Assembly (NCBI GenBank): GCA_002269645.1
Contig: NIVC01003108.1
Location: forward strand, 1-59,160
Length of the DNA: 59,160 bases
DNA from: Macrostomum lignano
Taxonomy: Eukaryota
Direction: 5' to 3'
Below the pieces are notes generated by a model that was not told the DNA's origin, ran no database searches, and saw only the letters and a list, made by a program, of their open reading frames with translations. Position 1 is the first letter of the stretch, and every line of letters begins with the position of its first letter. A program made the position numbers and the translations under genes. Positions 901-19,766 of the stretch are shown here, in pieces.

Positions 901-2431
901 GCTAATGAGCTGGAGTCTGGACGCGGCTCAGACAGGTGGTTTGGGCTCATTATTTATCCAGCAGTTGCAGCCCCTCCATTCCCCACTTCCCCAGCCAACT
1001 TGGACATCCCCGGTAGAGTCTGCCTCGGTAATTATTTCTCTTTTAAAACCTCTAAAAGCGTTGACAGCTTGAGCTGCAGCCAATAAATTCCTGCCCGTTA
1101 ACAACCCGATAGGGGCAATTATTATTGGATGCGAAGACAAATTGAGATAATAAAATTTATAAAAAGAGTTAAGACTATTTATTGAATTTTTGACAAATAG
1201 AGTTTGCAGGTAGTTACGCTACGGAGCAGCTAAGTAGGTTTTATTACCTCTACGTTGCTCAAAGCCCATTTACGTAATTGACAAAGTAGTTACAGACCAC
1301 TAATTGCACAGAGGGTGGCTCACTCGCATTAGGTTTTGTTGTGGAGTGCGTATTAAAAATTAAAGCATTTTGATGGGGCAGCTGCAGGCCTATGGCTGCC
1401 AAAAAAAGTATGAGAAGTATGTCACCAAGGATATATTATTAGCTAAACTCAAGAAACTATTTTTAACTGTCAGACAGACACGCTACTCATAGCAGAATCT
1501 AAGCCAGCGTCAGGCCGAAAAAGATCGCGAAAAAGCAGCGGTCAGCAGTGGCCACGACAGCGCTCCAGCTGTTGACATCAGTGGCCCGGCAACGCGAAGG
1601 CTGCTCCAACTGCGAGTCGAAGTTGACGGTTCGTCGCGACGAGATGTCGCTCATTTCTTTGCTGTCAGCATCACTGACCTGTGGGACCGTGACACATTTG
1701 GTTTGGCTTCTCCTGATAAAACGGCACTAGCAGTAAACGAACACTTACTCCGATGGAGCTTCGTTGCGCAACACTGTTAAAATTTTTACTTCTGGACGGC
1801 TCTCGACAAAATCGGCGCCCGCAGACGAATCTATTGAGAAACAGCAGCCGAGTCAGACGATTGGGGACTCGAGCATGCTCAGAAAACTGCTCAAAGTGGC
1901 AACTCAGAACGAAGGCGTTAGCAACCAGATTAGCCATGGTCAGAAGTACCGCGATGCTGAAGTACCAGCCTGCAGAATTTCACAGGAGCAGGTCCTTATT
2001 CAACAGACACTATTTTTAATCTCAATAAAATAAAAGAGTCCGGCCGCGACACTCACTGAGCAGCGGTACAGAATCTCCTTGAGTTGGTATGTAATTGTCA
2101 GTGAGCTGCAGGAACACGCACATCGACAGCACGATGGTGACGCTCAGTGACATTCTCTCGCCGCATTCCGGCGGCAATCGGAATACCAAAGAGGAGATGG
2201 CGAGCAGCATGAGGTTCACGACAGAATGCTGTCCTTCGCTGCAGTTTGAAATGCATGACAAACTTGTATTGCCTATCAGCATAGAATACAAAGTGAAAAG
2301 AACCTGAGCACCAAACCTACATAGCAACTCGGAGCTCCACATATTCGTATTGCACATCTACTGACTTGGCTGTGCTGACGTTGACAATGCAGAAATCACT
2401 GTTCCTATCCAGGTAGGTTGTCAGCGAGTCC

Positions 2432-2754
2432 AGTAGTATATACGATACAAAATAGCCAGCAAACCGTTCTCACCATTGCAAACAATTTAACCCTTTATCA
2501 GTGTGAAATGACTTGTTTTCCCTTCATTTTCGCTCGTCTTCACTTCGCTCAACTCGCTTCGCTCATCCTCGCTTCATTTCGGTCAAACAAGTCATTTCAC
2601 ACTTACAACGATTAATTCTCTTTGAATGGTGAGAACACGCTCTCGTCGAACGCTTTGGTTTGCTGGCTATTTTGTATCGTCAACGCTTCCAACTCTCCCC
2701 AATACACACAAACTCTCTATAACCCGTCGCACGCGCCGCAGGCGCGAAGGGTCT
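2432..2754 (+). repeat. Left terminal inverted repeat (323 bp)
   Basis: Reverse complement of 19444-19766 by eye; the ORF track gives the identical peptide VVYTIQNSQQ...FHTYND from both ends. Confidence 0.97.
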
Positions 2755-2770
2755 TTTTCTGTTACTAAAA

Positions 2771-3085
2771 ATGACCCGAGTTTACACCTTTTCTGTTAGT
2801 GATACTTTTGAGACTGTTGCTAAAAATGCAGAGATAATAAAACAACATATCTTGAACGGAATAATTGATGAAGTTTATTTAAAATATGACGATAAACATG
2901 ACCTAAAACTTTATCCATTAGAGTTAGATGAGATGTATGATTTAGAACAAGAGGGAGAGTTAATATTTCAACTTGGAGATTATTTAAATTCGGATGATTG
3001 GGAGGTTAGATCAACAGATTCCGAATCAACAAATAGTTCATATGAAACCAGTGATTCTGAGAATGAAATTGAAATTTTTATGTAA
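2771..3085 (+). CDS. Viral hypothetical acidic protein, 104 aa
   Basis: ORF with TAAAAATG start context immediately inside the left TIR. Confidence 0.6.
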   Translation: MTRVYTFSVSDTFETVAKNAEIIKQHILNGIIDEVYLKYDDKHDLKLYPLELDEMYDLEQEGELIFQLGDYLNSDDWEVRSTDSESTNSSYETSDSENEIEIFM

Positions 3086-3100
3086 AAAAATATTTAAAAA

Positions 3101-3325
3101 ATGAATTATTATTCTATAACAGAAACGACGTTTATTATGAAAAATATATATAAAAAAATGAAGGTAAATTATTCCTACATCGGAAATGTGCCGGTTAATG
3201 AACTTAATCAAAATTTAAGTTTGATATCTGTTGAACAAATGTCAATAATAATCTTAGTAACAATAATAGTAATAATATTGTTTTTGTTTGTTATAAAAAA
3301 TTTACTACCCTGTTGTCTTAAGTAA
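3101..3325 (+). CDS. Viral small membrane protein, 74 aa
   Basis: C-terminal hydrophobic stretch IIILVTIIVIILFLFVI; AAAAATG start. Confidence 0.55.
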   Translation: MNYYSITETTFIMKNIYKKMKVNYSYIGNVPVNELNQNLSLISVEQMSIIILVTIIVIILFLFVIKNLLPCCLK

Positions 3326-3335
3326 CTGTTCAAAC

Positions 3336-4214
3336 TTAGTTCGCAGACATTAGCTGGTTCTCATAAAAAGAACCCAATATTTCTTCACCGTCCTTATCAG
3401 CAATTATATAGGTTGTAGGATTGGTATTTAAAACTTTACTGATAGTAAATTTCTCACTTATTTTCCAATATCCTTTTCTTCCCTTTTCAAACTTATCTTT
3501 CCATTTATAGATATAAACAGAATCACCAACCTTAAAACCTTTAGTTTTCTTTTTTTCAAATTCTCCAAAAGTAACTTTAACTTTTTCAGGATTGTTATAA
3601 GCTTGTTGAGGAGTCATCTTTATAGCCGAATGATATGAATTGTTATAATCTTTCACAACGTCTGGTAATATTTTTACCCACTTTTGATTTCCATTCAGAC
3701 TAAATTGAAACCACAATTTCTTACCTAAAGTTCGATTAAATCTTTCTATTAATGCGTTTTTACTTTCGCCGTAAATAGAATAAATTTTATTAATATACTC
3801 CCCATTCGCGTCTTTTTTCCTTTCTTGTCCTTTTTCAAAATGATATAATTTATACATATGAGGATTGTAAAATTCTTTTCCTTCATCAACACACAACCTT
3901 TCACTTTTTTCTCCAAGACTTCTAAAAGCAGCCGCAACATCCTCTCCTTTTTTGGATTTTAAAGGAACAGCCCACGCATATCGAGTAAAACCATCTAATA
4001 TGGTTAAGATATATTTATATCCTCTTTCGTTCGGCATCGACATTAAATCAGCATACCAAATTTCATTCTTTTTGAAGTTCATGATTTTTCTATAAAATTT
4101 AGGTTTTCGATATTCTTTATGAAGAATCTTTGCCTCATCAGAACTTAACCCGCCGCCACTTAATAATAAACACTCAACACAATTATTTCCATGTTGATTG
4201 TAATTAATTCCCAA
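3336..4214 (-). CDS. Retroviral-type (rve) DDE integrase of the Maverick; probably the C-terminal part of a PLA2-integrase fusion
   Basis: IWYADL (D), YILTILDGFTRYAWAVPLKSK, VDEGKEF (D), IERFNRTL (E), YNNSYHSAIKMTP, C-terminal FKVGDSV...GSFYENQL. Confidence 0.95.
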   Translation of the reverse strand: MGINYNQHGNNCVECLLLSGGGLSSDEAKILHKEYRKPKFYRKIMNFKKNEIWYADLMSMPNERGYKYILTILDGFTRYAWAVPLKSKKGEDVAAAFRSLGEKSERLCVDEGKEFYNPHMYKLYHFEKGQERKKDANGEYINKIYSIYGESKNALIERFNRTLGKKLWFQFSLNGNQKWVKILPDVVKDYNNSYHSAIKMTPQQAYNNPEKVKVTFGEFEKKKTKGFKVGDSVYIYKWKDKFEKGRKGYWKISEKFTISKVLNTNPTTYIIADKDGEEILGSFYENQLMSAN

Positions 4215-4940
4215 TCCAAATTTAACTTTAGACTGTAAGATTTTTTAACCATCCACCGAGTTAATCTTTGGCTTACCGATAACCCCTGTAAGTTATCTAA
4301 TCCTTGAATCATTTTTCTATCAGCTTCATGTTTTAATCTTAATGCTTCCTCGGGTGAGTTCTTATCAGCATCTCTGTATGCTAAGTCATGATAGTATGCT
4401 AACCAATCAATACCGTTAATGGGAATTGAATCGGCTTTTGGTGTATTATCAGGATTTAATCTCAAATCTAACCTAGTACCGGCAGTTTGCCCTAAATCTT
4501 TCGAAATAGGCTGGAGCACACCTTAAGCGGATAAATTACCGCCCACCTCCGTCTGCTCTCTGAACCTTCTCCATATCTGCCGACTTAGGAGCTTGGCTGC
4601 GCATTGCCACCGTGTCTTCAAGCTTGTTACCTTTGGGAAGAGGAGTTACCTCTGTTCCTTCAAAAGATTTCTCAATTGAAGTGGTACTTGAAGCTGTATG
4701 ACGGGTTTCGCGCAATTTGAAGGTGTCGCCACAAATAGTGACTAGCAAGGACATTGCCTTCCTCACTCAGGCCACGGGTTAACCTGCGAAGTTGTAAGAC
4801 GGGATGTGTAATTCATTTGTATACCTTCCAGTAGTAAAGATTGGTGGTAAGCTTGTTAATCCTTTTTGAACATCTAACAATCCTCCTTCAAATACTAATT
4901 GTTCGAACCTTCGGTTCGCATGCGTCGCATGATCGCTCAT
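4160..4940 (-). CDS. Parvovirus-type phospholipase A2 (PLA2X) domain gene split by a group I intron: exon 1 4782-4940, exon 2 from 4482; joins the integrase frame near 4241-4246
   Basis: Exon 1 ends ELHIPSYNFAG; exon 2 continues GTRLDLRLNPDNTPKADSIPINGIDWLAYYHDLAY...HEADRKM (HD dyad, later D); the conserved end ILQSKVKFGLG lies in the integrase frame. Confidence 0.85.
4483..4781 (-). ncRNA. Group I intron, subgroup IC1 (self-splicing ribozyme type), ~299 nt, no internal endonuclease ORF
   Basis: P1 exon CAGGU / IGS GCCUG (4772-4768) with U.G; P3 CACCUUC (4725-4719) / GGAGGUG (4550-4544); P AAAUUGCGCGAAA and Q AAUGCGCAGC forming P4; P5abc with GAAA loop; R GUUCAGAGAGCAGA and S UAAGGUGUGCUC forming P7 GAGCA/UGCUC; P8 GGGCGG/CCGCUU; P9 GAAA loop; terminal G at 4483. 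Confidence 0.92.
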
Positions 4941-5489
4941 TTTTAATAGCCTTAAAAATACATGAAAGCACCAATTGTTTTGCAAATTCTTCAATGGTTG
5001 GTTGCTTAACTTTTTTATAGTTATTATCTACGCTAGTTAAGTATCTTTTATTTCTCCAATTTTCAGACTTTTTAATCTGATCTTCGTCTTTGTAACTAAA
5101 TGAAGAAGCGGGAATGAAATGATCAATATCTAACTTTCCAGTATAATTTTTTGGAACATAATAATTTCTTGTGAAATTTAACCAATCAAAAAGAATTCTT
5201 TTGTGCAACCAAGATAGGAGATATAATGCTTGTCATGAAAAGTTCTCAATGCCCAATTTATTCTACCTCTAATTAGACTAATATTTTTGTAATTTTCATC
5301 AGTGCGATATTTATTTTTTGCATATTTATTACATTTATCTTTATTGTTTATTCTCCACATAGTACATTTAACTTTCTCACAAGATCGACAAAGATTTTTA
5401 ATTTTTTTTGTGTCATTTCTCCAACAAAAAAATTCTTTAGTCATCGGTTTCTCAATTTTACACGTAGTACAAATCTTTTTAGATTCCAT
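4888..5489 (-). CDS. HNH-type endonuclease with N-terminal CxxC-CxxC zinc module (two ORFs joined by a one-base frameshift at 5188-5192)
   Basis: KICTTCKIEKP...LCRSC; KYRTDENYK...IRGRINWAL...YLGCTKEFF then FDWLNF...LDIDHFIPASSF...NWRNKRYL...NNYK, resembling HNH proteins of large DNA viruses (from recall, not a search). Confidence 0.75.
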
Positions 5490-5516
5490 TTTATAAAAAA
5501 TAAATTTAACAATTAA

Positions 5517-6188
5517 TTAAATACCTGTATGTCCAGCAGCTTTCGCGGCAGCTAAAACAAGTTTTCTAGGAGTTTTAAATCCTTCACCAACAGCCGGCAT
5601 GTTATTTATAGAATTAACAATCCTTTTATACAAGCTGGTATTTTTAACATGGGCTACTCCTAACTCATCGTAAAAATTTTTAGCACTTACTAATTCGTCT
5701 CTAGTATATAAATCAGGGTTAAATTTTACCCTAGGGTTCGTAATAATATTAAATGCTCCACCCAATTCTCTATATAGTTCATTTCGATTTTTATCAACTC
5801 CACCAATTCGATAATTACCACCACCTAAATCTGTCACAGCAATACTACGTGGCGCATCTCTTGGAAATTCTACCCGATTACCCCGATCTGCAGCCCTAAT
5901 CTCTGCAACTCTCAATTGAGCTTGATCAACATCATAAGCAGGTGGCTCATCCAAAATTTCATCCTCTTTTGGCTCCGTATTTTTAGCAATTTTTTCCAGA
6001 AGGTCTTTATCTGTTTTTTCTAGTTCACTAATTTTCCCCGTAATAGGATTAACAAAAGGAGCAGCAAATTTTTCACCAGCTAATTGTATTCCTAACTTTC
6101 TTTTTTGTAAATTTCTAACAAAATCAGAATATCTTTGTTTCTCTTTATAAATCGCTAACTCTCCATCAACGTCCATAAATTGGCTCAT
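5517..6188 (-). CDS. Viral hypothetical protein, 223 aa
   Basis: Long ORF with AAAAATG start, divergent from MCP. Confidence 0.7.
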   Translation of the reverse strand: MSQFMDVDGELAIYKEKQRYSDFVRNLQKRKLGIQLAGEKFAAPFVNPITGKISELEKTDKDLLEKIAKNTEPKEDEILDEPPAYDVDQAQLRVAEIRAADRGNRVEFPRDAPRSIAVTDLGGGNYRIGGVDKNRNELYRELGGAFNIITNPRVKFNPDLYTRDELVSAKNFYDELGVAHVKNTSLYKRIVNSINNMPAVGEGFKTPRKLVLAAAKAAGHTGI

Positions 6189-6222
6189 TTTTTAACATAA
6201 AAAACTTTTTTAACATAAAAAA

Positions 6223-7695
6223 ATGGCTGAAACAAAAACTATATGGAGTGATAAATTTCATTTCAAAAAGCACCGTCAGTATATTAATGAGGTCAGAGCG
6301 AGAGATTTAAACTATACTCTACCAACAAGCGATAATACAAATAACTTTACTAGCGGAACGGTAGCTTTTGACATCGGCGCAACCAACACCATATTGGATA
6401 TGAAAAATGCATTTTTCCGCGTTAGATGGTTGTATACTAGAAATGATGGAACTGCTCTAGCAGCCGGAGATATCGCAGATCGATCTGGAATAATAATAGA
6501 AAATGATTGGTTTTATAAATGTTTTTCCCAAGCTCAACTAACTGTTAATGGTGCCGAGGTTGAGACATCATCAAACCCCGCAGAGATTAATGGAGTTTTG
6601 AAACATTTAAATTATACTTATTTATCAAAACAAGTTGGTGATAATGTTGGGTGGATGCCGGATAAGGGCAATGGTCAAGCAGTAGTTTTCCCTAATGTAC
6701 AAAACGCAGCTGGTGCAGATACTGCAGCTCTTATTGCTTACATTAATACAAACATAGTTCCAGTTGTAACCACCATGACTAATACAAAAGATATTAATAC
6801 TGGTTATATAGATAGACAGAATAAATTCCCAGTTGCAGTTTTAACCACGGCAACGGCATATGAGCAGGACTTTTCAATCTTTCCACTATTTGGATTCTTC
6901 TCACCAAATCGGGTATGGAAAGGATTAAAATTTGGGGTACAGTTGCAAATATCTGGTGGATATCAGCCTAGGATACTTTATGGAACCTCTATTTCAACCG
7001 ATATAGCAGTTCGCATAGCATCAATACAATTAGTCGTGCCAACTATTGAGGTAACAGCACCACTTTTAAAACATGTCGATAATCAGTTAACGCATGATCA
7101 AGAAATATTTTATTTGAATCGTAGACATTTTATGCGAACCATTAATAATAATCAAGATTCATTCCAGTGGCAAATACTGACATCAAAACGTCGGGTGAGA
7201 TATATTTTTGTTTGGTTTAAGATAACAAATAGAAGGAGTAAAAGAGCAAATGGGGATTTATATTGGCTTCAATCAGGTGATGTAGCAGCACAGGGTGCCA
7301 CTGCAACAGACAATGCGGTTGCGGCCATTAACGAGTTTAATGTTCAGAATATCCGCCTGCAGGTTGATGACCAATACTATCCGGTTAAAGATCCTCTTAA
7401 TCTAAATATTGCAAATAATGATGTTAATGATTTTATAAAATATTATCAAGATTATGCCAAAAATGAAGCGTTTGCCGTCCCTCAGTACACACCCACAGAG
7501 TTTCTAAACATTCATCCAGTAGTTGTTTATGATCTAACGGCACAGAAAGAAAATGTAGCCAATGTTGGGCTTAATTATATGTTAGAGATTAATAAAACCG
7601 GTAATCAGGCAATAGACGCCCACGCTTTGTTTCTAGAGGAATATATGTCAATTGCTAAAGCCGACGGCACCATCGTTCGGGACGCCCCGCTGTAA
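6223..7695 (+). CDS. Major capsid protein (double jelly-roll), 490 aa
   Basis: Size and position; motifs LDMKNAFFRV, FSQAQLTVNGAEVE, PRYIF-like VRYIFVWF, YP...LNL, PVVVYDLTAQ typical of Maverick MCP. Confidence 0.85.
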   Translation: MAETKTIWSDKFHFKKHRQYINEVRARDLNYTLPTSDNTNNFTSGTVAFDIGATNTILDMKNAFFRVRWLYTRNDGTALAAGDIADRSGIIIENDWFYKCFSQAQLTVNGAEVETSSNPAEINGVLKHLNYTYLSKQVGDNVGWMPDKGNGQAVVFPNVQNAAGADTAALIAYINTNIVPVVTTMTNTKDINTGYIDRQNKFPVAVLTTATAYEQDFSIFPLFGFFSPNRVWKGLKFGVQLQISGGYQPRILYGTSISTDIAVRIASIQLVVPTIEVTAPLLKHVDNQLTHDQEIFYLNRRHFMRTINNNQDSFQWQILTSKRRVRYIFVWFKITNRRSKRANGDLYWLQSGDVAAQGATATDNAVAAINEFNVQNIRLQVDDQYYPVKDPLNLNIANNDVNDFIKYYQDYAKNEAFAVPQYTPTEFLNIHPVVVYDLTAQKENVANVGLNYMLEINKTGNQAIDAHALFLEEYMSIAKADGTIVRDAPL

Positions 7696-7744
7696 GCGGT
7701 GCAGGTCTCCGACCGTCGCACCAATTTAAATTTTATCTTTAAAA

Positions 7745-8509
7745 ATGGCAAAAGCAAAACACAATAAGATATTTCCAAATGATCCTTTTCTTTGTTTAGT
7801 AATTGGTGGGTCGGGTAAAGGAAAAACACACTTTGTTTATGACCTGTTAACAACGGATGGAATGATAGACTATAATAATTTAATAATTTATACTAACAAA
7901 CCTAGAATAAAATATTATGAATTTCTTAAACATGGATTAAAAAACAAATTAAAAAAAGATGTCTTGTTTAGAATGTTAAGAGCATATGAGCAATATGAGG
8001 ATGATGACGAACCGCGATTTACACTCGATGACATTGAGGATTTATGTAAAACAATGGCACAACAACCGGAAAACATCACCGAACGAGCCCCAACCGTTAG
8101 AGTATCAACCCGATTACCCTATCATCAAATTCCAAAAAATGATAAAACACTAATTATTTTTGATGATTGTATTAACGACAGTGATCAAGAATTGCAAAAG
8201 GATATTTTTGTTAGTGGTAGAGGGGATGGAATTGGCGCTTTTTATCCAACACAGTCCTTTAGAGAATTAGAATCGATTATAAAAAAGAATGCAAGTTGTT
8301 GTGTAATGTTTGATTTAGATAATTATGATTTACAAAATATACACGCTAGATTTAATCCCGGGTTGGATATAAAACCATTTAAAAGTATGTGTAAAAAAAT
8401 TTGGGATGACAGCCAATACAAACATATATATATCAACCCTAGGTTAGAAAGGAAAAATCGAATCTTAAGAGATCTGATAAAAGAAGATAATGAGGAAGAA
8501 GAGACTTAG
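7745..8509 (+). CDS. FtsK/A32-like DNA packaging ATPase
   Basis: Walker A LVIGGSGKGKT, Walker B LIIFDDC, downstream SGRG...YPTQSF. Confidence 0.93.
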   Translation: MAKAKHNKIFPNDPFLCLVIGGSGKGKTHFVYDLLTTDGMIDYNNLIIYTNKPRIKYYEFLKHGLKNKLKKDVLFRMLRAYEQYEDDDEPRFTLDDIEDLCKTMAQQPENITERAPTVRVSTRLPYHQIPKNDKTLIIFDDCINDSDQELQKDIFVSGRGDGIGAFYPTQSFRELESIIKKNASCCVMFDLDNYDLQNIHARFNPGLDIKPFKSMCKKIWDDSQYKHIYINPRLERKNRILRDLIKEDNEEEET

Positions 8510-8557
8510 TTCGTTCCGAAGGAACGCGACCCTACGGGGCGATTTACCACTATAAAA

Positions 8558-9343
8558 ATGGCAACAAATTTAAATACTATAAAACAATTGGTAGATAGAA
8601 CTAATTCAAAATTTAGTACAACCTTACAGTTTATAATGACAACCAGTGAGCAACGGATTCAATTGCGCGATCCGTTACAACTCGATCAAAGCCTAAGTTA
8701 TCAAATAGGTTTGATATTATTTTCGGTTTTTAACATGCCTCAATTAATTAATGCAACAAATAATCAATTTAGATATTCTAAAGATTCAGGAGCCAATTGG
8801 ACAACATTTAGTGTTAGCCCGGGTGCGTATAGCTATACCGATTTGAATGCTTATATCGAAGGAGAATTAACAGCTAATGGCGATTGGGTAGCGGGCGCGA
8901 TTGTTATAGGTGTGGATTTACCGTCTGGAAGATTCACACTATCACTAGAATCCGGATATCAGGTTGATTTTACAATTGCAAATTCACTCAGAACCATACT
9001 TGGATTTAATTCCCGAATAGTTACCACATCAAGCACCGGCGATACAGTTGGAAATATTGAGGGTGGAGTCAACACAATTAATATAACAACCGACATATCA
9101 AACGGCGGTTATATAACAGACGATAACGGAGTTTTGGTTCAACGTGGAATTATATATTCAATACCATTTCTTGCTGTTCCAATTGGAGAGAAAATGATTG
9201 TTTCACCTCAAACCCCAATATATTACCCATTAAATCAATATAGTGTTCAATCAATTTATATTAGGATTGTAGATGAAAGCGATAGATTAATAAGTTTTGG
9301 TGGGCAGTCAATAACAGTGATTTTACGTATAAAACAGGTTTAG
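8558..9343 (+). CDS. Minor capsid (penton, single jelly-roll) protein
   Basis: NNQFRY, PGAYSYTDLNAYI, LGF, INITTDI...GIIYSIP, PIYYPL, IRIVDESDRLISFGG, typical of Polinton mCP. Confidence 0.85.
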   Translation: MATNLNTIKQLVDRTNSKFSTTLQFIMTTSEQRIQLRDPLQLDQSLSYQIGLILFSVFNMPQLINATNNQFRYSKDSGANWTTFSVSPGAYSYTDLNAYIEGELTANGDWVAGAIVIGVDLPSGRFTLSLESGYQVDFTIANSLRTILGFNSRIVTTSSTGDTVGNIEGGVNTINITTDISNGGYITDDNGVLVQRGIIYSIPFLAVPIGEKMIVSPQTPIYYPLNQYSVQSIYIRIVDESDRLISFGGQSITVILRIKQV

Positions 9344-9353
9344 TACTGTAAAA

Positions 9354-9524
9354 ATGGGTAACAATAGTTTAAAAAAGCAATCATATAAAGTTCAAAATGC
9401 AAAAGATAATTATGAAATCGAATTAACAAAATTAAAACAATTACAGGCAGAAAAAATCCGAAAGGAGCTGTTAAAATCCAAACCTACAAAACTAACTAAA
9501 ACCAAGAGTTTTTCAGGAACATAA
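9354..9524 (+). CDS. Small basic viral protein, 56 aa (below ORF-track cutoff)
   Basis: MGNNSLKKQSYKVQNAKDNYEIELTKLKQLQAEKIRKELLKSKPTKLTKTKSFSGT; TAAAAATG start; fills the mCP-protease gap exactly. Confidence 0.55.
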   Translation: MGNNSLKKQSYKVQNAKDNYEIELTKLKQLQAEKIRKELLKSKPTKLTKTKSFSGT

Positions 9525-9525
9525 A

Positions 9526-9966
9526 ATGACCATGACGTGGGATGATTTTAAACAAAGATATGGAACAGACACAACAAGCAATATCGAATTAACAAATTGG
9601 GCGCGGCAACTAAAGATAAAACCATTCAGATGTGTTATGCGGGATGAGATAAAAAATTTACCAATATATGGATGTTTCATTGTTAACATCGAAACGACAA
9701 AAGAAAATGGTGTTCATTGGTCAGCAATTTATTCAAAACCTAAACTTGTTTATTTTTTTGATTCATACGCGCTTCCTCCGTTACAGGAAATAAAAGATAA
9801 ATTTAATCATACTAAAAATCGTTTATGTGGAGATCATCACGAACAATTTCAAACTTTTGATAAAAGTTATTGCGGACAAGCGGCGTTGTATTTTTTATAT
9901 AGGGTCGAAAAGGTAAAACAGGTAACTCCCGAAGTATTTAAGATAATTTTAGATTCTATAAAATAG
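9526..9966 (+). CDS. Adenain-like cysteine maturation protease
   Basis: GVHWSAI (His), YFFDSYA (Asp), QTFDKSYCG (Gln, Cys). Confidence 0.93.
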   Translation: MTMTWDDFKQRYGTDTTSNIELTNWARQLKIKPFRCVMRDEIKNLPIYGCFIVNIETTKENGVHWSAIYSKPKLVYFFDSYALPPLQEIKDKFNHTKNRLCGDHHEQFQTFDKSYCGQAALYFLYRVEKVKQVTPEVFKIILDSIK

Positions 9967-9975
9967 ACAGTAAAA

Positions 9976-12021
9976 ATGTTATTTTCTGGAACGCCCTCAT
10001 GGAACGGAACAACAAGTACTGGTGGTGGTACGTCTGGTGGAATAAGCGTCACATTCGGAGATAACCGATATATTAATGAAGATGAAGGTTATAAAAAAAG
10101 TGAAGTTGATACTAAACTAAATTTAAAAAGAAATGTTGCAGATTCCTATACCAAAACTCAAATAGATGATTCATTAAATTTAAAACGCAATACGGCCGAT
10201 TCTTATACCAAAACCGAAGTTGACAATGGGTTAAATTTAAAAAGAGATATAACTGATTCTTATTCTCGAACTCAAATCGATGATTCATTAAATTTAAAAC
10301 GCAATACGGCCGATTCTTATACCAAAACTGAAATAGATAATTCATTAAATTTAAAAAGAGATATTGCTGATTCTTATACCAAAACCGAAGTTGATAATTC
10401 CTTAAATTTGAAAAGAGATATAACTGATTCTTATACCAAAACCGAAGTTGATAATTCCCTAAATTTGAAACGGAATGTTGCCGATTCCTATACCAAAACC
10501 GAAGTTGATAATTCATTAAATTTAAAACGGAATGTTGCCGATTCCTATACCAAAACGGAGGTTGATAATTTAGTTGGAGGTGGAGCCCCAAAACAAGATC
10601 GATTCCAAACGGTTGAAACTGGTCACATACCTACCATGGCAGATTGGAGTGGAAATGGTTTTGCAATAACCGCAAGCACCGCATTTAATACAACCGATTT
10701 TGCAAGCTGGAAAGCGTTTGATGGTGATGATTCAACAGATTGGGCAACAAATAATACTCAAACCGATTATTGGATTCAAGTCCAATGCCCTTCCGCAATA
10801 ATGTGTTATAAAATTGATTTGCGTGGTAGGCCATCGCCATCAACCGAACACCCAGCATCATGGCGATTTGAGGGGAGTAACGACAATACAAGTTGGGACG
10901 TATTAATACCTGCGGATAGTTCTGTAGTAATAAATAACTCAACTCAAACAATTAATGTCACACAAAATTTTGATAAAACATATTCATATTTCAGATTGTT
11001 CTGTCTTACATCAACCTCGGGTTCAACCAACCCCGGCTTGTCAACCTTCCAGATTTATAGACAGACGTTTACAATTCTTGATTTAAATTTAGGAGTGGTT
11101 AATCAATCAATTGATATGGGTAATAATACAATTACTAATATCTCTACAATAAACGATAACACTTCTGTTGTTACTAAAGGTTATGTTGATACGCGAGTAA
11201 CCCAAACGGCGGATGGCCGAATGTCTTTTAACGATAAAATAAAATTGGATGGAATACCCGCGATTGATGCCGCTTTGTACGAGCCTGTGATTTTCAATTG
11301 GACTGGATATCAAAACCCAACCACAGCCGGCGATATTTTTCCAACTGGAAGTTTTGTTGGTGACGCTACTTATATTGATTATCAAAATGGAGCTAGAATT
11401 ACTGATGAAGCAAGTGGTCAGTCTGGAGCGTTGCAATTTAATTTCACCCATTTTCGTAATATATCCGCCTCCTTCTATTTCCGAGTTATTAATGCCACAG
11501 GAAGTGGTGCTGATGCGGTTTGGTTTTATGCATATTGTCACGAACGTCCAACAAGTGAATTTGGATCCGGGTTAACAACCAACGCCGGCTTGATTGTGTT
11601 TGCGAGTGAATGGCATGATAGAGTTGGAGTTGTTTGGAGTAATATAAAATCAGACGGAGCAACAGTTCGTAATGATGTTCTTAATGATGCTGATCAAACT
11701 ATAACTTATGCAAATATTGATAACGGCGATTGGCATTTATTTGAAATTAATATTTTAAATCAAAGAGTTTGGTATCAAATAAGCACATACAATGTTTCAG
11801 CTAAAACATATACGCTAATTGGGCAAAACTTTTTTACATATGATAGTGGAACTTGGGGAGAGTTAGATAAAACGGGAACTCTTATGGGGTTTGGTGCTAG
11901 AACTGGAGGGGCAGATGCTGCACATTTTATTCGTGGCGCTGCCGTTTGTGGTAGCACATCAGCAGGATCTGATTTTGCTGCGACCGCATATTTGGAACAG
12001 CCACAAGCCGAAATAGCCTAA
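9976..12021 (+). CDS. Fibre/spike-like protein, 681 aa: 8 x 19-aa repeats, discoidin (F5/8C)-like domain, C-terminal L-type lectin-like domain
   Basis: Repeat NLKRxxxDSYTKTEVDNSL (~10119-10570); ITAS...WKAFDGDDSTDW...WIQVQ...FEGSNDNTSW...YFRL; VVTKGYVD linker; QSGALQF...GADAVWF...GFGARTGG..H. Confidence 0.75.
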   Translation: MLFSGTPSWNGTTSTGGGTSGGISVTFGDNRYINEDEGYKKSEVDTKLNLKRNVADSYTKTQIDDSLNLKRNTADSYTKTEVDNGLNLKRDITDSYSRTQIDDSLNLKRNTADSYTKTEIDNSLNLKRDIADSYTKTEVDNSLNLKRDITDSYTKTEVDNSLNLKRNVADSYTKTEVDNSLNLKRNVADSYTKTEVDNLVGGGAPKQDRFQTVETGHIPTMADWSGNGFAITASTAFNTTDFASWKAFDGDDSTDWATNNTQTDYWIQVQCPSAIMCYKIDLRGRPSPSTEHPASWRFEGSNDNTSWDVLIPADSSVVINNSTQTINVTQNFDKTYSYFRLFCLTSTSGSTNPGLSTFQIYRQTFTILDLNLGVVNQSIDMGNNTITNISTINDNTSVVTKGYVDTRVTQTADGRMSFNDKIKLDGIPAIDAALYEPVIFNWTGYQNPTTAGDIFPTGSFVGDATYIDYQNGARITDEASGQSGALQFNFTHFRNISASFYFRVINATGSGADAVWFYAYCHERPTSEFGSGLTTNAGLIVFASEWHDRVGVVWSNIKSDGATVRNDVLNDADQTITYANIDNGDWHLFEINILNQRVWYQISTYNVSAKTYTLIGQNFFTYDSGTWGELDKTGTLMGFGARTGGADAAHFIRGAAVCGSTSAGSDFAATAYLEQPQAEIA

Positions 12022-12077
12022 GGCTAAAGCCTAAGTCGCGAACCAAAGGTTCGATAACTTAAATATTTCTATATAAA

Positions 12078-12407
12078 ATGGCTTTTAGTAGAACTCCATC
12101 GATGCGACAAAATAACAATGTTATTATTCCTATTCCTAAACAAGAATCAAATATAAAAACATACAAATCTCATACCAAATATTTATTTAGCCATGTGAAT
12201 GTTCAGGATAATAAGAAACTTCAAGAATTAATTAAATTGTTAAAAAACCATATCATACTTCAAGAGTTTTGGAAAATAGGATTTAAATGGGAGAAAAAAG
12301 AAAGAATCACTCCGATACAATACCTATTGAGCTCCGGACAAATACCCAAAGAGCGTGGGGAATTCATTTTGGTGCTATTAAAAATAGACGAAAATGTCGG
12401 TGTCTGA
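12078..12407 (+). CDS. Viral hypothetical protein, 109 aa
   Basis: ORF with TATAAAATG start. Confidence 0.6.
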   Translation: MAFSRTPSMRQNNNVIIPIPKQESNIKTYKSHTKYLFSHVNVQDNKKLQELIKLLKNHIILQEFWKIGFKWEKKERITPIQYLLSSGQIPKERGEFILVLLKIDENVGV

Positions 12408-12536
12408 GGCAGATAAAAGGGAACGTGACCATTTTAACCAACGTAAAGGTCACATGTTAAGTAATGTTGATCGTATTAACTATGATTATATTTATATGTT
12501 AAAAAAGTAAGAAGGATTTCAAACCATATCAGAAAT

Positions 12537-13045
12537 ATGGATTTTTTCAATATTGGTTTTGGAAGCTTATCGATGTTATGTGTAATCGTTTTAGGTATTT
12601 TACAATCTATTCCAACTCTTAATTTATCTCAATTATTTTTAGGTATTTCAATTGGCTCAATATCAGGATTTGAATTAATCAGAAATTTATCAATACTTAT
12701 GGCAATTAAATTATATCTTAAAAAACGAAAGGATAAATATAAATCATTAAGAGATATTGCAAAACAATATAAAAATCAGTTGTATTTATATGTGCAAAAA
12801 TATTGGATGATGGAGAGATAACAATTCATGAGTTATCAACGGCGGTTGAATTATATGAAAAATATTTAAAAGATCGAAATAGAATTTTAGATGTTGAAAC
12901 TTTTACCGATATGGAGTTAAAAGAGTTGAGACTCGATAAACCCAAAGCTCCGCCGATAGAAACTATTGAATACAAACCAGAAACTATGGCTATGGGGGTA
13001 CAAAGCCCCCGATCAGGTAGCGCTGTAGAACTTCAAGTTGTTTAA
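12537..13045 (+). CDS. Viral two-TM membrane protein (~169 aa after joining two ORFs at the A5 run 12796-12800)
   Basis: Two hydrophobic segments, then KKRKDKY...VQK(I)LDDGEITIHEL...EKY; adding one A makes a continuous ORF. Confidence 0.6.
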
Positions 13046-13525
13046 TTTTTCTAACGCATACGTTATATATTCTTCCCAAAGTGGTAATTCTCTTGTAATT
13101 CTAGGTTTAAATTTTTTATCAATACATAAAAATTCCAATGACTTTTTCAGTAACATTTCGTTAGGTATGTTACCTATCCTTATAAACTTTGTATTCTCTC
13201 GAATAAGAAAATTAAAATAATATCCAACTAAAATTAAAATCCTTTCGGAGTCTTTCGAACTTAATCCCTTTCCTTTATTTAAATTGAAAAAGTTGTTATA
13301 TAAATAAACATTATTTCCGGGAATTAAAATTGGATGAGAAATGTCTCTTGTAAGATTTCTTAATATTGTGTTTTTAAAATAGTAATATGAATTTTCAATC
13401 TTTTTTGTTTTTTCAAATTGATATATTTTAGAACATGAATAGCACATATGATATATATCTCCGCTTGCTGTTTGAGCTCTATGCATAGTCACGTTACATT
13501 TTTTACATTCGTAAATGTCTTTCAT
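13013..13525 (-). CDS. Viral hypothetical protein with N-terminal CxxC...CxxC zinc ribbon, 170 aa
   Basis: YECKKC...MCYSC; AAAAATG start. Confidence 0.65.
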   Translation of the reverse strand: MKDIYECKKCNVTMHRAQTASGDIYHMCYSCSKIYQFEKTKKIENSYYYFKNTILRNLTRDISHPILIPGNNVYLYNNFFNLNKGKGLSSKDSERILILVGYYFNFLIRENTKFIRIGNIPNEMLLKKSLEFLCIDKKFKPRITRELPLWEEYITYALEKLNNLKFYSAT

Positions 13526-13551
13526 TTTTTTGTTATTTTTTTAGATTAAAA

Positions 13552-13884
13552 ATGGAAAGTTGGTTGAAAACCGATTCTAATGTGATTAATTATGTCACCC
13601 CCAATATGTTGGAGAATAAAGAATATAATATTATATGTTTGAGACAGGTTAAATTTATTGGACTTCAATCGATATTTTTACAATTGGATTCACATACAGT
13701 TCTATGTCTAAGTGGGAATGATGTTAAAAATTTTCCAGTTTTAGTTATTAATAAACCTAAAGCGTTCATTATAAAATACAGCACCGAGGGTGGGTTGCAA
13801 TTTAAAATAAAACAAACAAAAAATAAAAAGAGTGACAGGACTGTAAAATTAGCTTCCGTTTGGGAGACTGACGAAGATGACTAA
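13552..13884 (+). CDS. Viral hypothetical protein, 110 aa
   Basis: TAAAAATG start; compact packing. Confidence 0.6.
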   Translation: MESWLKTDSNVINYVTPNMLENKEYNIICLRQVKFIGLQSIFLQLDSHTVLCLSGNDVKNFPVLVINKPKAFIIKYSTEGGLQFKIKQTKNKKSDRTVKLASVWETDEDD

Positions 13885-14245
13885 ATTTTTTTATAAGAAA
13901 ATGGAGATACAAATTATCCTTATCACTAAAGAGCGTGAACTTAATTATATTAATAAAAAAATAAATACTATGTTTTATAGTGATTATGGGGACGATATGT
14001 TTCCTATCCGATACGACTTGGATAAAAGAAAGCGTTTTATACAAAAAGCAATTGATTATGCTGAAACAGTAATTGAAATTGAAATAGATAGATTGGTTAG
14101 ACGAATAAAAAAACTTAGGAAAAAAATAAAGGAATGTTTAAGTTACCCTGCCGACTGCGAGGACAATTGGCCTTCAATAATATATGAAATTGAAGTTAAT
14201 GATATGGTCAAACAATTACATGCTTTGGTTTTTTTCAAGTGCTAA
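13877..14245 (+). CDS. Viral hypothetical protein, ~110-122 aa
   Basis: ORF overlapping the previous one; converges on PolB. Confidence 0.55.
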   Translation: MTKFFYKKMEIQIILITKERELNYINKKINTMFYSDYGDDMFPIRYDLDKRKRFIQKAIDYAETVIEIEIDRLVRRIKKLRKKIKECLSYPADCEDNWPSIIYEIEVNDMVKQLHALVFFKC

Positions 14246-17200
14246 TTCATCAATATCAAACTCAAAACAATTATAATCAACATCAAATAGTAAACTGTTA
14301 TAATATGCAATTGAATTTTCGTGTTGTGGTTTGTCATCAAAATAGTTTTTAAAGAATGGTTTCATAACTCCGTTTTTATCCGGTTTTTCTCTTTTAAATG
14401 TGTTTATCGTAGAGGTATATGTTTTTGATATTGTTGATCCACTTTGGGGATTATTATGCCTCCTTCAAACGATCGTTTCCATGGGGCATTATTATTTACT
14501 TTTATTGACTGCCCATCATATAACGTTTTAAACGATGCAAAATTAATCTTATCATTTGCACATCCTTTAAATGTTTTTTTCTCTTCCATAATAAAATCGT
14601 CTTTCAATAAAAGACAATATTTAATTTTAGGAGCGATAAAATAACCGAATATAATTCCACCCTCTCCATAATCATTTTTTCCTTGACTTAAATTATTTCC
14701 AACATGCCCGTTTTTATTTAATGTGTCCCAATATTTTTTATGTATATATAACGAATCTGTATCGCCGTAATAAATTTCTGGAGTCTTTGAGCCGTCTATA
14801 GAGGTGATAAAATTATTCATGATCCTTCTTGAATGAGCTAAGATAAATATTCCTAATTGTGCTGGACAAAGGCTTGTTATAGGACAATCCTCTTCCTCAT
14901 CTACATATTCTTGCGTGTCTTTATTTTTTTCAACATAATATAAATCGTCACATATTTTCTCATATGATTTGATTGTGTCATCGTATTCTGTTTTTAATGT
15001 TTGCAAATTCCAGAGATGTGTTGTGAAAGTAATGTCTCTTTGAACTGTTTTGCCATATAATGAATTTAATAGTGTTTTTACCAATTCAGAACCTGCCTCG
15101 TTATTTTCTTTTTTAAATACTTTTCTCCTTTCAAAAAGGCTTGTAATATAATTCTGAAACGGAGAGAAATCGTAATTTTTTTCATATACAATTCCACTAT
15201 ATATCTTTAATATTTTTCCACCCATTCTTACAATTTCTTGTATATCTACGGAACATAAGGTGTCAATTACCTTTCCGTTTTTAAACCTATTTAATGTTTT
15301 TGTTTCGTTTGCTTTTGTTTCCGGATTATAAAATTTCTCTTTATCTTTCGATGGGAGATGTTGAAGAAAAACGGTGTTAGGATTCTCATACATAATCTTT
15401 AAAACCGCTGTTTTTGGTCGAAAGGTTTGTGAATTAAATTGTGATAAGAAATCTTTTTCCTCGCTTATATCAAACACCCTGGCTGTTTCTGCTCTTGGAT
15501 ATTCGCTATCCTTATCAGACATGGCGGATGGGTACAATGAGACCCCATCAAAATTCATTAAACAATCTGATACGGTACCCAATTGATTTTTTAGTTTAAT
15601 TGCGATTTTCTTTTTTTCTTCCATATCGCTTTTGAGATAAGATGATATAACCTCGCATGGGTCGCTTGTTGGTGTTTTTAAATGGTCTTTTACAACGTCT
15701 ACTATTGTTTGAAAACAATCACTTTCGTATTTATTTATTAGTGCAAATACTCTACCTCCTTTGACTGCGTCCCGCATAAACCTTCTTATATAAGGATTGG
15801 TATGAGAGTGAACTGAAAATTCTTTTCTTAATAGTGTTTGGTATTTCGCTTTTTCAAGATTGCTTAAGTCAAAATAATCTTCTATTTTCAACGGAGATAT
15901 TATTTCTTCAACTTTTTTAATGTAATTAGTTTTTTCTTCTGTCTTTAGATATTGTTTCATTTTGTCTTCAACTCTAACAAAATCTTTAAACCAACATTTT
16001 AATGTTAAACTTGAACACGTAAGAGTATCAAACATTGTCATTCCTCCAATTTCATATGCTATTTCGTTATATTTATGAATACAGGCACATAAAGAAATAA
16101 GATCAAATTGTAAATATTCATACCATTCGTCTATGCGTTCTAGATAATCGTGCTCGGTAATGTCATGAACCATTGAGGTTTTTCGCAAATCCTCTCTAAT
16201 TGTCATTGATGAGCAAAACTTTTTTAAACTCATTGAAGCGTGTTGATATGAACAAAGCATCGTAATGGTTTGTTTCGAATCCTTGTGATTCTTCTTCTTA
16301 TCTTTATTTATAAACGCACTAACCTCTTTTGACGCGTAATCGTTTACAAAAGTGATTGATAATATTCCTCTTGGGGTTTTGAGAATTTTAATTGGTTTTA
16401 TATTACAAAATAGTGGTATGTATGAATCAAAGCGGGATGAGTTGTGTGCGATCAAAACAATCTTTTTTGACCTAACTGTACCAAGGTATTTAAACATTTT
16501 TCTAACGCAGTCGGTCTTAGCTCCGTCTGTTTGAAAATCACAACCGCGATCTGATATCAAGATCTTAGTTAGTTTCTTTATTTCCTCTGGGGTTTCGTTA
16601 CAATTATTAGAAAAGTCATTATAATTTAAAAGACCAACCGCATACGGGCATGCTTGTTGATTATAATTTAAATATGTTTCAAAATCAAATATATATACAT
16701 TTGATTTATTGGGATTTGTGGGTGTGTTGAATATTTTTAACTCCTTAACATTTTCGGGTGTTGGGTTTTTAAACACTACTTTATAATTGTCTTTTATCCG
16801 TTCGAGGGCGATTCCTCGTTGTTTATTTGATATAAGACAATAATGCCCAATGTGGTAATCGGGTGTGTGAAATAATTTATTAATAACCAATCGTGGTGAA
16901 TCCCTCTTTGAGACTTTGGTTCAATGCCGCGATTTTTGGTGTTGTACAGCCCTATATTAAGATTAAAATATTCATTGAATCTTCCAATTCTTGAATTTGT
17001 CATTAAACCTCTTTGGGTTCTTGAGTCGTACAACCAAGCACCATATTCGTCTTTGCGTGGGGCTTTATCACCATATATAAATTTAACGCACTTATAGAAA
17101 CAATTTCCATCACTAGGTATGTAACAGTACTCATCTTTATACTCTGCAATTTCACACATGACATTTGTTCCCATACCCTGCTTTGACCTTTCGTGTTTAA

Positions 17201-17812
17201 TTGTAATTTCATTTGGTGTCATTTTAAGTCTTCCAGAAAACATACTTAAATTCATGTTATAGTTTTCTACCAAATGCTTAATCCAAGCTTGAAACTGTTT
17301 TATATTATAAAATGTTGCTAAGTATTGATTAATCTCTTCGCGATCATCGCCGCTATCGTTATAAAAATATTGTACACTAGCATTAGTAATTTCAACACTA
17401 TATCCGTTTGAAAGTTGGGTTTCAATAAAATCTAGCACCTTCTGCATTGGTTCAAATCGATAAACCCTAATAAACTCTTCTAATGGTTTTTCATCCGATT
17501 TATTCTTAGTTTTCCGACGTGTTTGTTTCTTTTGGTTTTTTCTAATTCTGCTATTCTTTTTTCATATTCAACCTTTTCTACTAAACGCTTAAAAGCTTCT
17601 TCTGCCCTTATACTATTTGCTAATTCGTTTATTTGTTGTTCTTGTATTTCTCTTTCTCTCTGCCTTTCTCTCTGTCTTTCTCTTGCTCTTCGCCGAAGTT
17701 GCTGTCTTTGGCGCCGTTCAATTTGTTCAATCTGTCTTTGTAATAGATTGAACTGTTGGCGCTCATTTGCAAGAAGTTGTCGAATCTGATCTGGGGTCAA
17801 TCTTTGTTCCAT
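14216..17812 (-). CDS. Protein-primed family B DNA polymerase with N-terminal region and vOTU domain; split here by three one-base frameshifts (17536-17541, 16876-16878, 14422-14426)
   Basis: ExoI IFDFET, ExoII AHNSSRFD, ExoIII YLQFD; Pol A DGVSLYPSAM, B KTLLNSLYGK, C YGDTDSLY, KxY APKIKY; OTU IPSDGNCFYKC...GHYCLI; restored C-terminus STINTFKREKPDKNGVMKPF. Confidence 0.93.
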
Positions 17813-17896
17813 TTTATAGAATATAATTTATATAATGTTTGAATTATTGGTTTTTTAATTTTATGTTTTTAGCGTCCTGACCCACCTCCCAGGAGC

Positions 17897-18871
17897 CTAT
17901 TCGAGATCTGCTTTTGGTAACAGTAGTCCATTGCCCATAACGTTTGAATTTAAGAAAATTCCTGAACCTGCTTTTGGTCTCATTTCGAGATATAATCCGC
18001 TTCCGTCGTGTTTTTCAATTATGTTAAAATCTTTTCCTAACTTAGTAAAAATCTTCTGAACTGCCGGCCTAAAATTAGCTCCAATATTATCAAAAAACCC
18101 TTTAGCTTTCTCACCCGTTTTTTCTAAAGTTTGACCAAATTCCTGTAGTTTATCTGCTACAACTCCACTTCCTTGGGTTGTTCCTTTTAGTACCAAGCCG
18201 CTGCCATTTAACAGTAAACCTTTTCCGGCTGCTAACCTAGCTTCTGCATTTCTTTTTTGCTCTGCTGTTGCTGAACTACTATTAATGGTGTCAATAAGTT
18301 TCTGTTTGAATTGAGCATCCTGCGTTATTTGCTGTCTTTGAAATTCGGCCTCTCTTTTAGCTTTTTCATCCGCAGCTTTTTTGTCATTTACTGCTTTTGC
18401 AATTCCAGCTGCTCCACCAGCAACTCCTCCAGCTGCTCCTATTCCTGCAAAAATTATTGGTAACAAAGTTGCAAGTGGTAATATGCCTCCCTGTTTTGCC
18501 TTTAATTCTGCTAACTGTTTTCGGTTATCATGAATTCTTTTGCCTGCTAAACCGGCTGCTCCGGCTGCTCCGAGGCCTAAAAGAATTGGTAAAATAGGTA
18601 GTAAACCACCGTCCTTTTTAGTGTGAGTCTCCAATAAAAATTTTACATCGGACTCTGTCAGCCTATAATTTCTACCACGATTCTTAAAGGATATTGGCCT
18701 TCCTTCTTGTGCATATTTTGCAGCAAGTTTAAATGTATCGATGTCGTAGTCAAGTTTTTTACCTAAACGATCCAATCTTTTTAACATTGTGTGGCTATGT
18801 TTATTATCATCTAGATTTAAAGTATCTACAATTTCTCCTATAAAATGTAGCCGTTCATTATCCGTGTCCAT
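17897..18871 (-). CDS. Virion core / membrane-active protein with Gly-Ala-rich amphipathic segments, 324 aa
   Basis: DGGLLPILPILLGLGAAG; QGGILPLATLLPIIFAGIGAAGGVAGGAAGIAKAVND; repeated GKGL/GSGL motifs, as in Maverick/adintovirus core proteins. Confidence 0.75.
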   Translation of the reverse strand: MDTDNERLHFIGEIVDTLNLDDNKHSHTMLKRLDRLGKKLDYDIDTFKLAAKYAQEGRPISFKNRGRNYRLTESDVKFLLETHTKKDGGLLPILPILLGLGAAGAAGLAGKRIHDNRKQLAELKAKQGGILPLATLLPIIFAGIGAAGGVAGGAAGIAKAVNDKKAADEKAKREAEFQRQQITQDAQFKQKLIDTINSSSATAEQKRNAEARLAAGKGLLLNGSGLVLKGTTQGSGVVADKLQEFGQTLEKTGEKAKGFFDNIGANFRPAVQKIFTKLGKDFNIIEKHDGSGLYLEMRPKAGSGIFLNSNVMGNGLLLPKADLE

Positions 18872-18881
18872 TTTTATATTG

Positions 18882-19322: not shown

Positions 19323-19443
19323 TCCATTTAGACCAGATTTTTGAAAACGAAAACCAAAACGAAAAATCTGGTCTAAATGGAATGTTGAGTGGGTGGGTGA
19401 GCTGACTATAAATAGCTTCTATTCTTTCTCTACCAAAACTTCC

Positions 19444-19766
19444 AGACCCTTCGCGCCTGCGGCGCGTGCGACGGGTTATAGAGAGTTTGTGTGTATTGGG
19501 GAGAGTTGGAAGCGTTGACGATACAAAATAGCCAGCAAACCAAAGCGTTCGACGAGAGCGTGTTCTCACCATTCAAAGAGAATTAATCGTTGTAAGTGTG
19601 AAATGACTTGTTTGACCGAAATGAAGCGAGGATGAGCGAAGCGAGTTGAGCGAAGTGAAGACGAGCGAAAATGAAGGGAAAACAAGTCATTTCACACTGA
19701 TAAAGGGTTAAATTGTTTGCAATGGTGAGAACGGTTTGCTGGCTATTTTGTATCGTATATACTACT
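19444..19766 (-). repeat. Right terminal inverted repeat (323 bp)
   Basis: Reverse complement of 2432-2754. Confidence 0.97.

Follow-up and report, generated by a model that had tools for sequence, protein, structure and literature searches.

Group I introns at a single glycine codon in the PLA2-integrase gene of a Maverick family in Macrostomum lignano

A Maverick integrated in the nuclear genome of the bilaterian Macrostomum lignano carries a 299-nt insert in a gene that fuses a PLA2 domain to an rve integrase. That this insert is a genuine group I intron (here type A) we regard as close to certain. Judged from the sequences of its many copies, it belongs to a well-supported family of group I introns, apparently under selection, within a nuclear element of a bilaterian. 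We propose, with a probability of roughly two in three, that the intron is spliced and that it shields Gly-Pro codons from a GGNCC-cutting nuclease that would also drive its spread. A first-pass annotation of this DNA had pointed out the insert. The predominance of copies ending in A, a second intron (type B) at the same site, an exchangeable nuclease slot upstream and the absence of GGNCC are new relative to it, apart from the terminal G of the window copy, which it had noted. The window is the whole stretch analysed, contig NIVC01003108.1 of assembly GCA_002269645.1 (59,160 nt); coordinates are window positions unless a locus is named.

Host element, intron and gene

The Maverick is 17.3 kb long (2432-19766) and runs from AGTAGT to ACTACT. 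A 6-bp target duplication, GAGTCC, lies at 2426-2431 and 19767-19772, and the inverted terminal repeats measure 334 nt and are 99% alike. These AGT-starting repeats with a 6-bp duplication are the ends of a Maverick/Polinton (adintovirus), and a protein-primed DNA polymerase B (pPolB), an rve integrase and a packaging ATPase are all present as its genes. The main features are as follows.

2022..2357, minus strand: exon of a host Cys-loop ligand-gated channel beside the insertion (PF02932, E 4.3e-11)
2432..2754, plus strand: left terminal inverted repeat, beginning AGTAGT, with the GAGTCC target duplication alongside
3336..4482, minus strand: exon 2 of the PLA2-integrase gene, the rest of PLA2 (His-Asp motif) fused to the rve integrase
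4483..4781, minus strand: type A group I intron, 299 nt, no ORF, IC1-like (RF00028 60 bits; intron-less alleles; pair counts)
4782..4940, minus strand: exon 1 of the PLA2-integrase gene; its last codon is the Gly of the PLA2 loop (in an intron-less allele, PF08398 extends across the junction)
4891..5489, minus strand: nuclease slot, with its end about 109 nt upstream of the intron; here an HNH-like ORF, broken near 5185
6223..9966, plus strand: virion module with the packaging ATPase gene and probable major capsid, minor capsid and protease genes
6223-7695, plus strand: probable major capsid gene, assigned from size and order without a family match
7745-8509, plus strand: packaging ATPase (Pox_A32)
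14404..16497, minus strand: C-terminal piece of protein-primed DNA polymerase B (PF03175, E 6.6e-19)
19444..19766, plus strand: right terminal inverted repeat, ending ACTACT, with the target duplication at 19767-19772
20424-20666: N-terminal exon of the same kind of Cys-loop channel, on the other flank of the Maverick

Profile searches with Pfam and PHROG gave no match to the capsid and protease ORFs; the minor capsid and protease genes are probable assignments from ORF size and order. A fibre-like ORF of 681 aa at 9976-12021 contains tandem repeats of 19 aa together with an F5/8 type C domain, and its end is lectin-like. The left terminal repeat has internal inverted repeats and short CTTCGCT-type repeats inside it. 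Tandem paralogous Cys-loop channel genes occupy 637-2357 and 20424-22078, and the Maverick sits between exons of one of them. The 764-Mb assembly also contains Prospero (PROS) homeobox genes (35 PF05044 matches above cut-off), which PMC6125248 describes as bilaterian-specific. A search for mir-124 gave no match, and neither did its control. The annotated setting, a Maverick in an animal genome, thus agrees with the element's ends, its genes, the channel exons on both flanks and the Prospero genes. In the assembly, Prospero exons come in pairs or triplets that are nearly identical; the same is true of some Maverick loci, and the copy counts given here may therefore include duplicated haplotypes.

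RF00028 covers the type A intron end to end with 60.0 bits (E 7.3e-15; permissive filters, 461 bases scanned), above the Rfam gathering score of 50 bits, and so backs the annotated group I intron at 4483..4781. A whole-window Rfam scan with fast filters overlooked it, and scans over longer sequence overlooked both intron types. The insert is richer in GC than the element (48% versus 34%) and its first codon in the exon frame is UAA, which closes the frame at once; both points had been annotated correctly. Its folding free energy is ordinary (z -1.03), as expected for a pseudoknotted core. The P3-P7 pseudoknot core, P4-P6 and the G-binding G-C pair are all present, a U.G pair in P1 marks the 5' splice site, and removal restores the host frame. 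Every helix from P1 to P9.0 in the first-pass annotation can be drawn as standard pairs:

4768..4786, minus strand: P1, the 5' exon end pairing with the internal guide; splice-site U.G, with U at 4782
4766-4745, minus strand: P2
4742-4728, minus strand: P2.1
4725/4544, minus strand: P3
4715/4597, minus strand: P4
4607..4704, minus strand: P5/P5abc with A-rich bulge and GAAA loop, nearly letter-for-letter the same in the type B intron of sister copies
within the intron, minus strand: P6/P6a
4513..4560, minus strand: P7, P3 3' strand and P8; P7 (4560/4513) is GAGCA/UGCUC with the G-binding G-C pair kept
4484..4512, minus strand: P9.0 and P9 with GAAA loop, just ahead of the terminal nucleotide; one P9 pair shows a two-sided change
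4483, minus strand: terminal G of the window copy, the end of the type A intron

The P5abc of type A is Tetrahymena-like. Features of subgroup IC1 include P5abc with an A-rich bulge, P2, P2.1 and P9; all of these were drawn and counted in type A, which by this anatomy appears IC1-like, as annotated. Among sister copies, the P5abc of L042 and L044 has a hairpin-like 30-nt insertion at the P5c/P5a junction, and L047 and L053 have longer P6b loops.

The minus-strand frames around the insert end in ...YNFAG and resume with GTRLDLRL. We analysed 66 distinct loci, which are the best matches in the assembly and not a random sample: 45 carry type A, 18 carry type B and three have no intron. A genome-wide search with the junction pattern likewise gave three intron-less junctions. 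The three intron-less alleles read (A)GPGT, which places the splice sites after 4782 and after 4483, and the distance from intron end to Thr codon is exactly two codons (Pro-Gly class) in 42/45 type-A copies. Two 5' sites had been put forward. The insertion between Gly and Pro with a site after 4782 is confirmed by the intron-less alleles, for which a survey of sister copies had been proposed, and by the type-A copies. The site after 4781, giving FAGSGT, is rejected: the intron-less alleles read GPGT, and at 4479-4482 the window copy does not stay in register. The exon 2 frame of the window copy is broken at this 3' junction and again near 4240.

The gene had been labelled PLA2X. PMC8502044 defines PLA2X as PLA2 plus a pX tail. 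The sister-copy frame runs past the junction into the integrase (at least 379 open codons in 44/66 loci), so the gene is not PLA2X in that sense, and we reject the label in favour of a PLA2-rve integrase fusion, of which public proteins provide further examples. A weak adenovirus pX match falls in a separate Gly/Ala-rich ORF (17897-18871). With pN/pS of 0.08 in PLA2 exon 2, 0.10-0.12 in the integrase and 0.31 in exon 1, the gene is under selection on both sides of the intron. Gly-Pro is found at the PLA2 loop in 9/9 public PLA2-integrase relatives. Three relatives in metagenome contigs all lack an intron in the stretch examined; the search of viral contigs found no relatives.

GGNCC avoidance and the nuclease slot

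GGNCC does not occur in the element, against 16.7 sites expected by an order-2 model and about 9 by an order-3 model, and the host flanks hold 104 against 111 expected. It is the most depleted of 256 patterns. Codon shuffles of the element expect 14.9 sites and reach zero in 0/1000 cases; synonymous shuffles expect 5.8 and reach zero in 1/1000. The dipeptide Gly-Pro is likewise absent from the element's 18 ORFs (7.9 expected). Across the 66 loci there are 9 sites against about 139 expected: six lie outside the element-aligned parts, and the other three are the intron-less junctions, the only GGNCC within the PLA2-integrase gene. Gly-Pro codons always spell GGNCC, which leaves the intron-less junction as the only site. 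Two of the three junctions have the longer form RGGNCCY, in which an EcoO109I-type cut would fall 2 nt from the insertion point. Another, more distantly related Maverick family in the same genome is intron-less and has the GGNCC site intact (821 bases examined). Within 2755-19443, CCNGG (9 versus 22) and CANTG (34 versus 51) are partly depleted and may mark other nucleases, such as HNH-like variants.

The gene in the slot upstream of the intron is exchangeable: 51 of the 66 loci have an HNH-like ORF (pN/pS 0.48), 12 an Eco47II-like ORF (pN/pS 0.30), and three are unclear. The HNH-like ORF has no Pfam or PHROG match and a low-confidence structure model (pLDDT 55); we call it HNH-like from its motif and its atlas neighbours at 0.87-0.88, which are unnamed viral proteins near HNH clusters. 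The Eco47II-like ORF matches PF09553 with E 4e-5 to 8e-5 (23.8 bits, below the family cut-off of 25.9), and its atlas neighbours are Eco47II and EcoO109I. Its model (pLDDT 85.5) has EcoO109I (PDB 1wtd) as the top fold, with Z 8.8 and rmsd 3.9 over 166 aligned residues; PDB sequence searches returned nothing useful. EcoO109I cuts RG^GNCCY (PMC3089450), and an Eco47II homologue has been assigned GGNCC ‘without certainty’ (PMC10305163). GGNCC specificity of the Eco47II-like protein is predicted from this homology.

Six of 153 nuclease relatives, in five clusters, run on into a translation of the type A intron core (for P0013, E 2e-19 with 64% across 58 residues). Such continuous tails suggest that the nuclease is probably intron-borne elsewhere. 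Searches of viral and genome contigs yielded no nuclease relative with DNA context. One public protein of the same nuclease family (P0035) is a fusion between a C5 DNA methylase and an Eco47II-like nuclease. The slot region of one locus (L004:891-1355) holds a third ORF, acidic, 155 aa long and without a family match.

In the proposed mechanism, the element would be transcribed, G would attack at the U.G pair after 4782, and ligation of the exons would follow the last intron nucleotide, G or A; host RNA chaperones would probably assist in the A-ending majority. Self-removal of the intron would yield the PLA2-integrase mRNA. In part of the element population, a nuclease of the Eco47II/EcoO109I kind, encoded just upstream, would cut GGNCC. 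The family would have purged every GGNCC from its own genome, Gly-Pro at the PLA2 loop being the one place that could not be encoded without it; there the intron would split the junction GGNCC in the DNA and restore it in the RNA. Intron-less copies would be cut and then lost, or repaired from intron-bearing copies by collaborative homing. Such loss or repair would explain why intron-less copies are rare, why intron states are scattered on the gene tree and why a second intron occupies the same spot. Against the model, the Eco47II-like gene is present in a minority of loci (12/66), the window copy itself has the HNH-like ORF, and type B copies may do without Gly-Pro. As a 5-bp cutter would cut host DNA about every 400 bp, the enzyme would have to be silent, confined or more specific.

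A bolder version, to which we give somewhat less than even odds, sees a virus with a methylase-free restriction system that purges its own GGNCC, arms itself against host or rival DNA and uses the intron to encode the one Gly-Pro it needs. The germline of the animal would then harbour an active family of viral ribozymes, mostly lacking a terminal G, that process protein-coding mRNA in the nucleus, and two competing intron cores would swap peripheral modules.

Purging and spread might also have separate causes. The intron could be spliced while spreading through the HNH-like neighbour or by plain recombination, and an outside nuclease, from a co-infecting giant virus or a past host, could have removed GGNCC, the intron merely benefiting. 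The prevalence of the HNH-like ORF, its pN/pS and its viral neighbours near HNH clusters fit this account, as do the restriction systems that giant viruses carry according to PMC12220804 and the free recombination among Maverick copies. We nevertheless consider it unlikely, given that the Eco47II-like gene resides in the element family itself and has relatives reading into the same intron. Nor does the HNH-like enzyme obviously cut the empty site: all three intron-less alleles adjoin an HNH-like ORF, unbroken at 189 codons in two of them. That 0/3 intron-less copies have the Eco47II-like gene is expected by chance.

Copies, selection and splicing

The assembly contains 114 occurrences of the exact P7 core of the type A intron. 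For the 23 type-A copies whose frames are open, the p-distance is 0.053 in the intron and 0.296 at flanking synonymous sites, about 5-fold higher; recent spread could be another cause of the low intron divergence. Pairing was counted in an alignment of 28 of the 33 distinct type-A sequences, excluding five with long insertions or assembly-like indels. Here 99.7% of 2462 cells are paired, compared with 38-48% in slid controls, the P1 U.G pair is kept in 28/28 copies, and 2/65 core columns vary. The P7 5' strand and its G-C pair are the same in 45/45 type-A copies. Changes on both sides affect 7/88 pairs, a count that does not exceed shuffles (105/500), and four of the seven, all in P2, represent one swapped module. 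Variable columns have similar frequencies in paired (34/171) and unpaired (28/128) positions. Covariation in type A is modest and partly inherited.

The terminal G in the first-pass annotation is correct for the window copy but is the minority state in the family: with exact patterns, 82 of 95 scored type-A copies end in A and 13 in G. A terminal A in place of G should slow exon ligation, and natural A-ending group I introns exist; our literature search found no paper on the latter. The G-binding pair is unchanged in 45/45 copies although most end in A, and frames are open in 19/33 A-ending and 8/12 G-ending copies. It thus seems that A-ending copies have increased in number while selection on them continued, a sign that they may splice. 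We think it quite likely that the type A intron is spliced in vivo. Contigs over the intron are found in 4/4 sequencing runs from four studies (three presumed RNA, one presumed DNA). These contigs contain no join across 4482-4782, which is neutral on splicing as a many-copy family fragments contigs.

In about 24 copies (for example L039:1167-1500) the same Gly codon is followed by another group I intron, type B. It differs from type A in P1, P3, P4 and P7 (GACUGU/ACAGUC) and scores 31.4 bits with RF00028, below the cut-off. Its P2.1 and P5abc are near-identical to those of type A, and P2 variants are common to both. Splicing type B at the orthologous 3' site leads to a stop, and in-frame alternatives alter the loop and lose Gly-Pro, so Gly-Pro may not be essential. 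A search of viral contigs with the type B core pattern gave 0 matches. Loci L103, L105 and L106 hold old, decayed, 5'-truncated type-B relics before a decayed PLA2 exon, and the P9 of these relics shows two-sided changes relative to young type B.

Intron states are scattered across the integrase tree and cluster no more than in shuffles (33/200). On the starred branches of this tree, type B requires at least 5 changes, and so does A-ending type A. This scatter suggests that introns or gene parts move between copies; general recombination would give the same pattern.

The possibility that type A is a dead or near-dead passenger of non-autonomous elements, with integrase supplied by intron-less copies or from an internal start, draws on the A-ending majority, an ATG at 4082 ahead of the rve core and the three intron-less copies with open frames. 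We consider it improbable. The core is near-invariant with its pairing kept while synonymous sites are about 5-fold more diverged, open frames are similarly frequent in A-ending and G-ending copies, and PLA2 exon 2 is strongly selected in intron-bearing copies; the decayed type-B relics show what a dead intron looks like.

Excision by the host spliceosome is far less probable still. The 5' junction, CAG|GUUAAC, resembles a donor and the host nucleus has a spliceosome, but removal by this route cannot yield the conserved junction, and we reject it. In L002, eight AG acceptors lie between 80 nt before and 12 nt after the Thr codon; seven are out of frame and the sole in-frame one deletes the conserved PGTRL. 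Spliceosomal excision would also not preserve a ribozyme core, and type B lacks the CAG|GU donor. Contamination of the assembly by a protist or giant virus, suggested by the nearest intron relatives being in giant viruses, is equally remote and is rejected given the target duplication inside an animal channel gene, the 114 sites, many on contigs of 0.2-1.5 Mb, the Prospero genes in the assembly and the coverage of the intron in 4/4 runs.

Origin, significance and comparison with known systems

A pattern of the rare P7 variant (GAGCA/UGCUC) matched 10 viral stretches (IMG/VR loci L091-L100). Going by their flanking frames, at least five are in giant-virus RNA polymerase genes; another comes after a giant-virus capsid gene. 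One viral contig (L094) has several group I cores in a row beside a capsid-like frame. The intron and nuclease probably reached the Maverick family jointly, in an intron of giant-virus or Polinton-like-virus origin with the nuclease inside it.

Group I introns are held to be missing from bilaterians and, where nuclear, to be limited to rRNA genes of microbes. A large family of them, under selection in a virus integrated in an animal genome, overturns both limits. It offers a natural system for a standing question in intron evolution and ribozyme tools: are such ribozymes able to splice mRNA of the polymerase II type in animal cells? With more than 100 natural variants, the majority A-ending, it can be tested directly how dispensable the terminal G is. 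The GGNCC finding suggests how an intron could concretely benefit the virus that hosts it, by hiding a restriction site that cannot be avoided, and points towards the recruitment of a restriction enzyme for homing. The case would also link animal Mavericks to the giant-virus gene pool. In practice, default Rfam filters miss such introns.

In our literature search, which covered few subscription papers, no group I intron was reported from an animal Maverick, nor any intron that hides a restriction site. The accessible parts of PMC11296320, PMC10748475, 10.64898/2026.10.13.758929 and PMC8502044 mention no group I intron in animal elements. The first-pass annotation knew of none in any Polinton. 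This does not hold: PMC12220804 describes such introns from Polinton-like viruses in a few groups of protists, and the novelty is limited to the animal part.

Those protist viruses (Rhodomonas lacustris cluster C3, Paulinella, Desmodesmus; PMC12220804) are among the closest parallels. They too are integrated and have RF00028 introns, of about 300-380 nt, and their genomes have free-standing homing nucleases, a further likeness. According to the same source, their introns are confined to few protist groups and lie in a short gene before the capsid gene. The M. lignano Maverick differs in its bilaterian host, the PLA2-integrase gene, the two intron types, the A-ending majority and the site avoidance.

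The polr2a/polr2b introns of Bodo saltans virus (PMC5871332) and those of L091-L100 resemble type A in R/S elements, the GAGCA/UGCUC P7 and a similar P5abc. As here, the giant-virus introns in PMC5871332 are ORF-less, thought to be mobile in trans and inserted in an invariant motif. Giant viruses, as described there, replicate in protists and have HNH or GIY-YIG nucleases, whereas the Maverick is inherited vertically in an animal nucleus.

Nuclear rDNA IC1 introns of the Tetrahymena type (PMC3679873) share P2/P2.1, the A-rich bulge of P5abc, P9.0 and the U.G site. According to that source, rRNA genes of microorganisms are the only place where nuclear group I introns occur, whereas type A interrupts a protein-coding gene of a virus integrated in an animal genome. 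PMC11835236 reports animal group I introns only from placozoans, corals and sponges, and they are mostly mitochondrial; the accessible part of PMC9240083 lists bilaterians only with group II introns. The introns in these two sources also occur in animals but are mostly IB4 and non-bilaterian.

For mobility, the cyanophage psbA/F-CphI collaborative homing system (PMC11296320) likewise pairs an ORF-less intron with a separate nuclease beside the host gene; in the Maverick, too, such a nuclease is predicted to cut the site that lacks the intron. The Maverick differs in a predicted short-site enzyme of the restriction type and genome-wide site avoidance instead of a long target. Eco47II and EcoO109I (PF09553, 1wtd) have in common with the Maverick protein the fold, the PD-(D/E)xK motif and, by inference, a GGNCC-type target. 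In contrast to these two enzymes, the Maverick has no methylase in the element and a shorter protein of 168 aa, and protection appears to come from loss of sites together with the intron.
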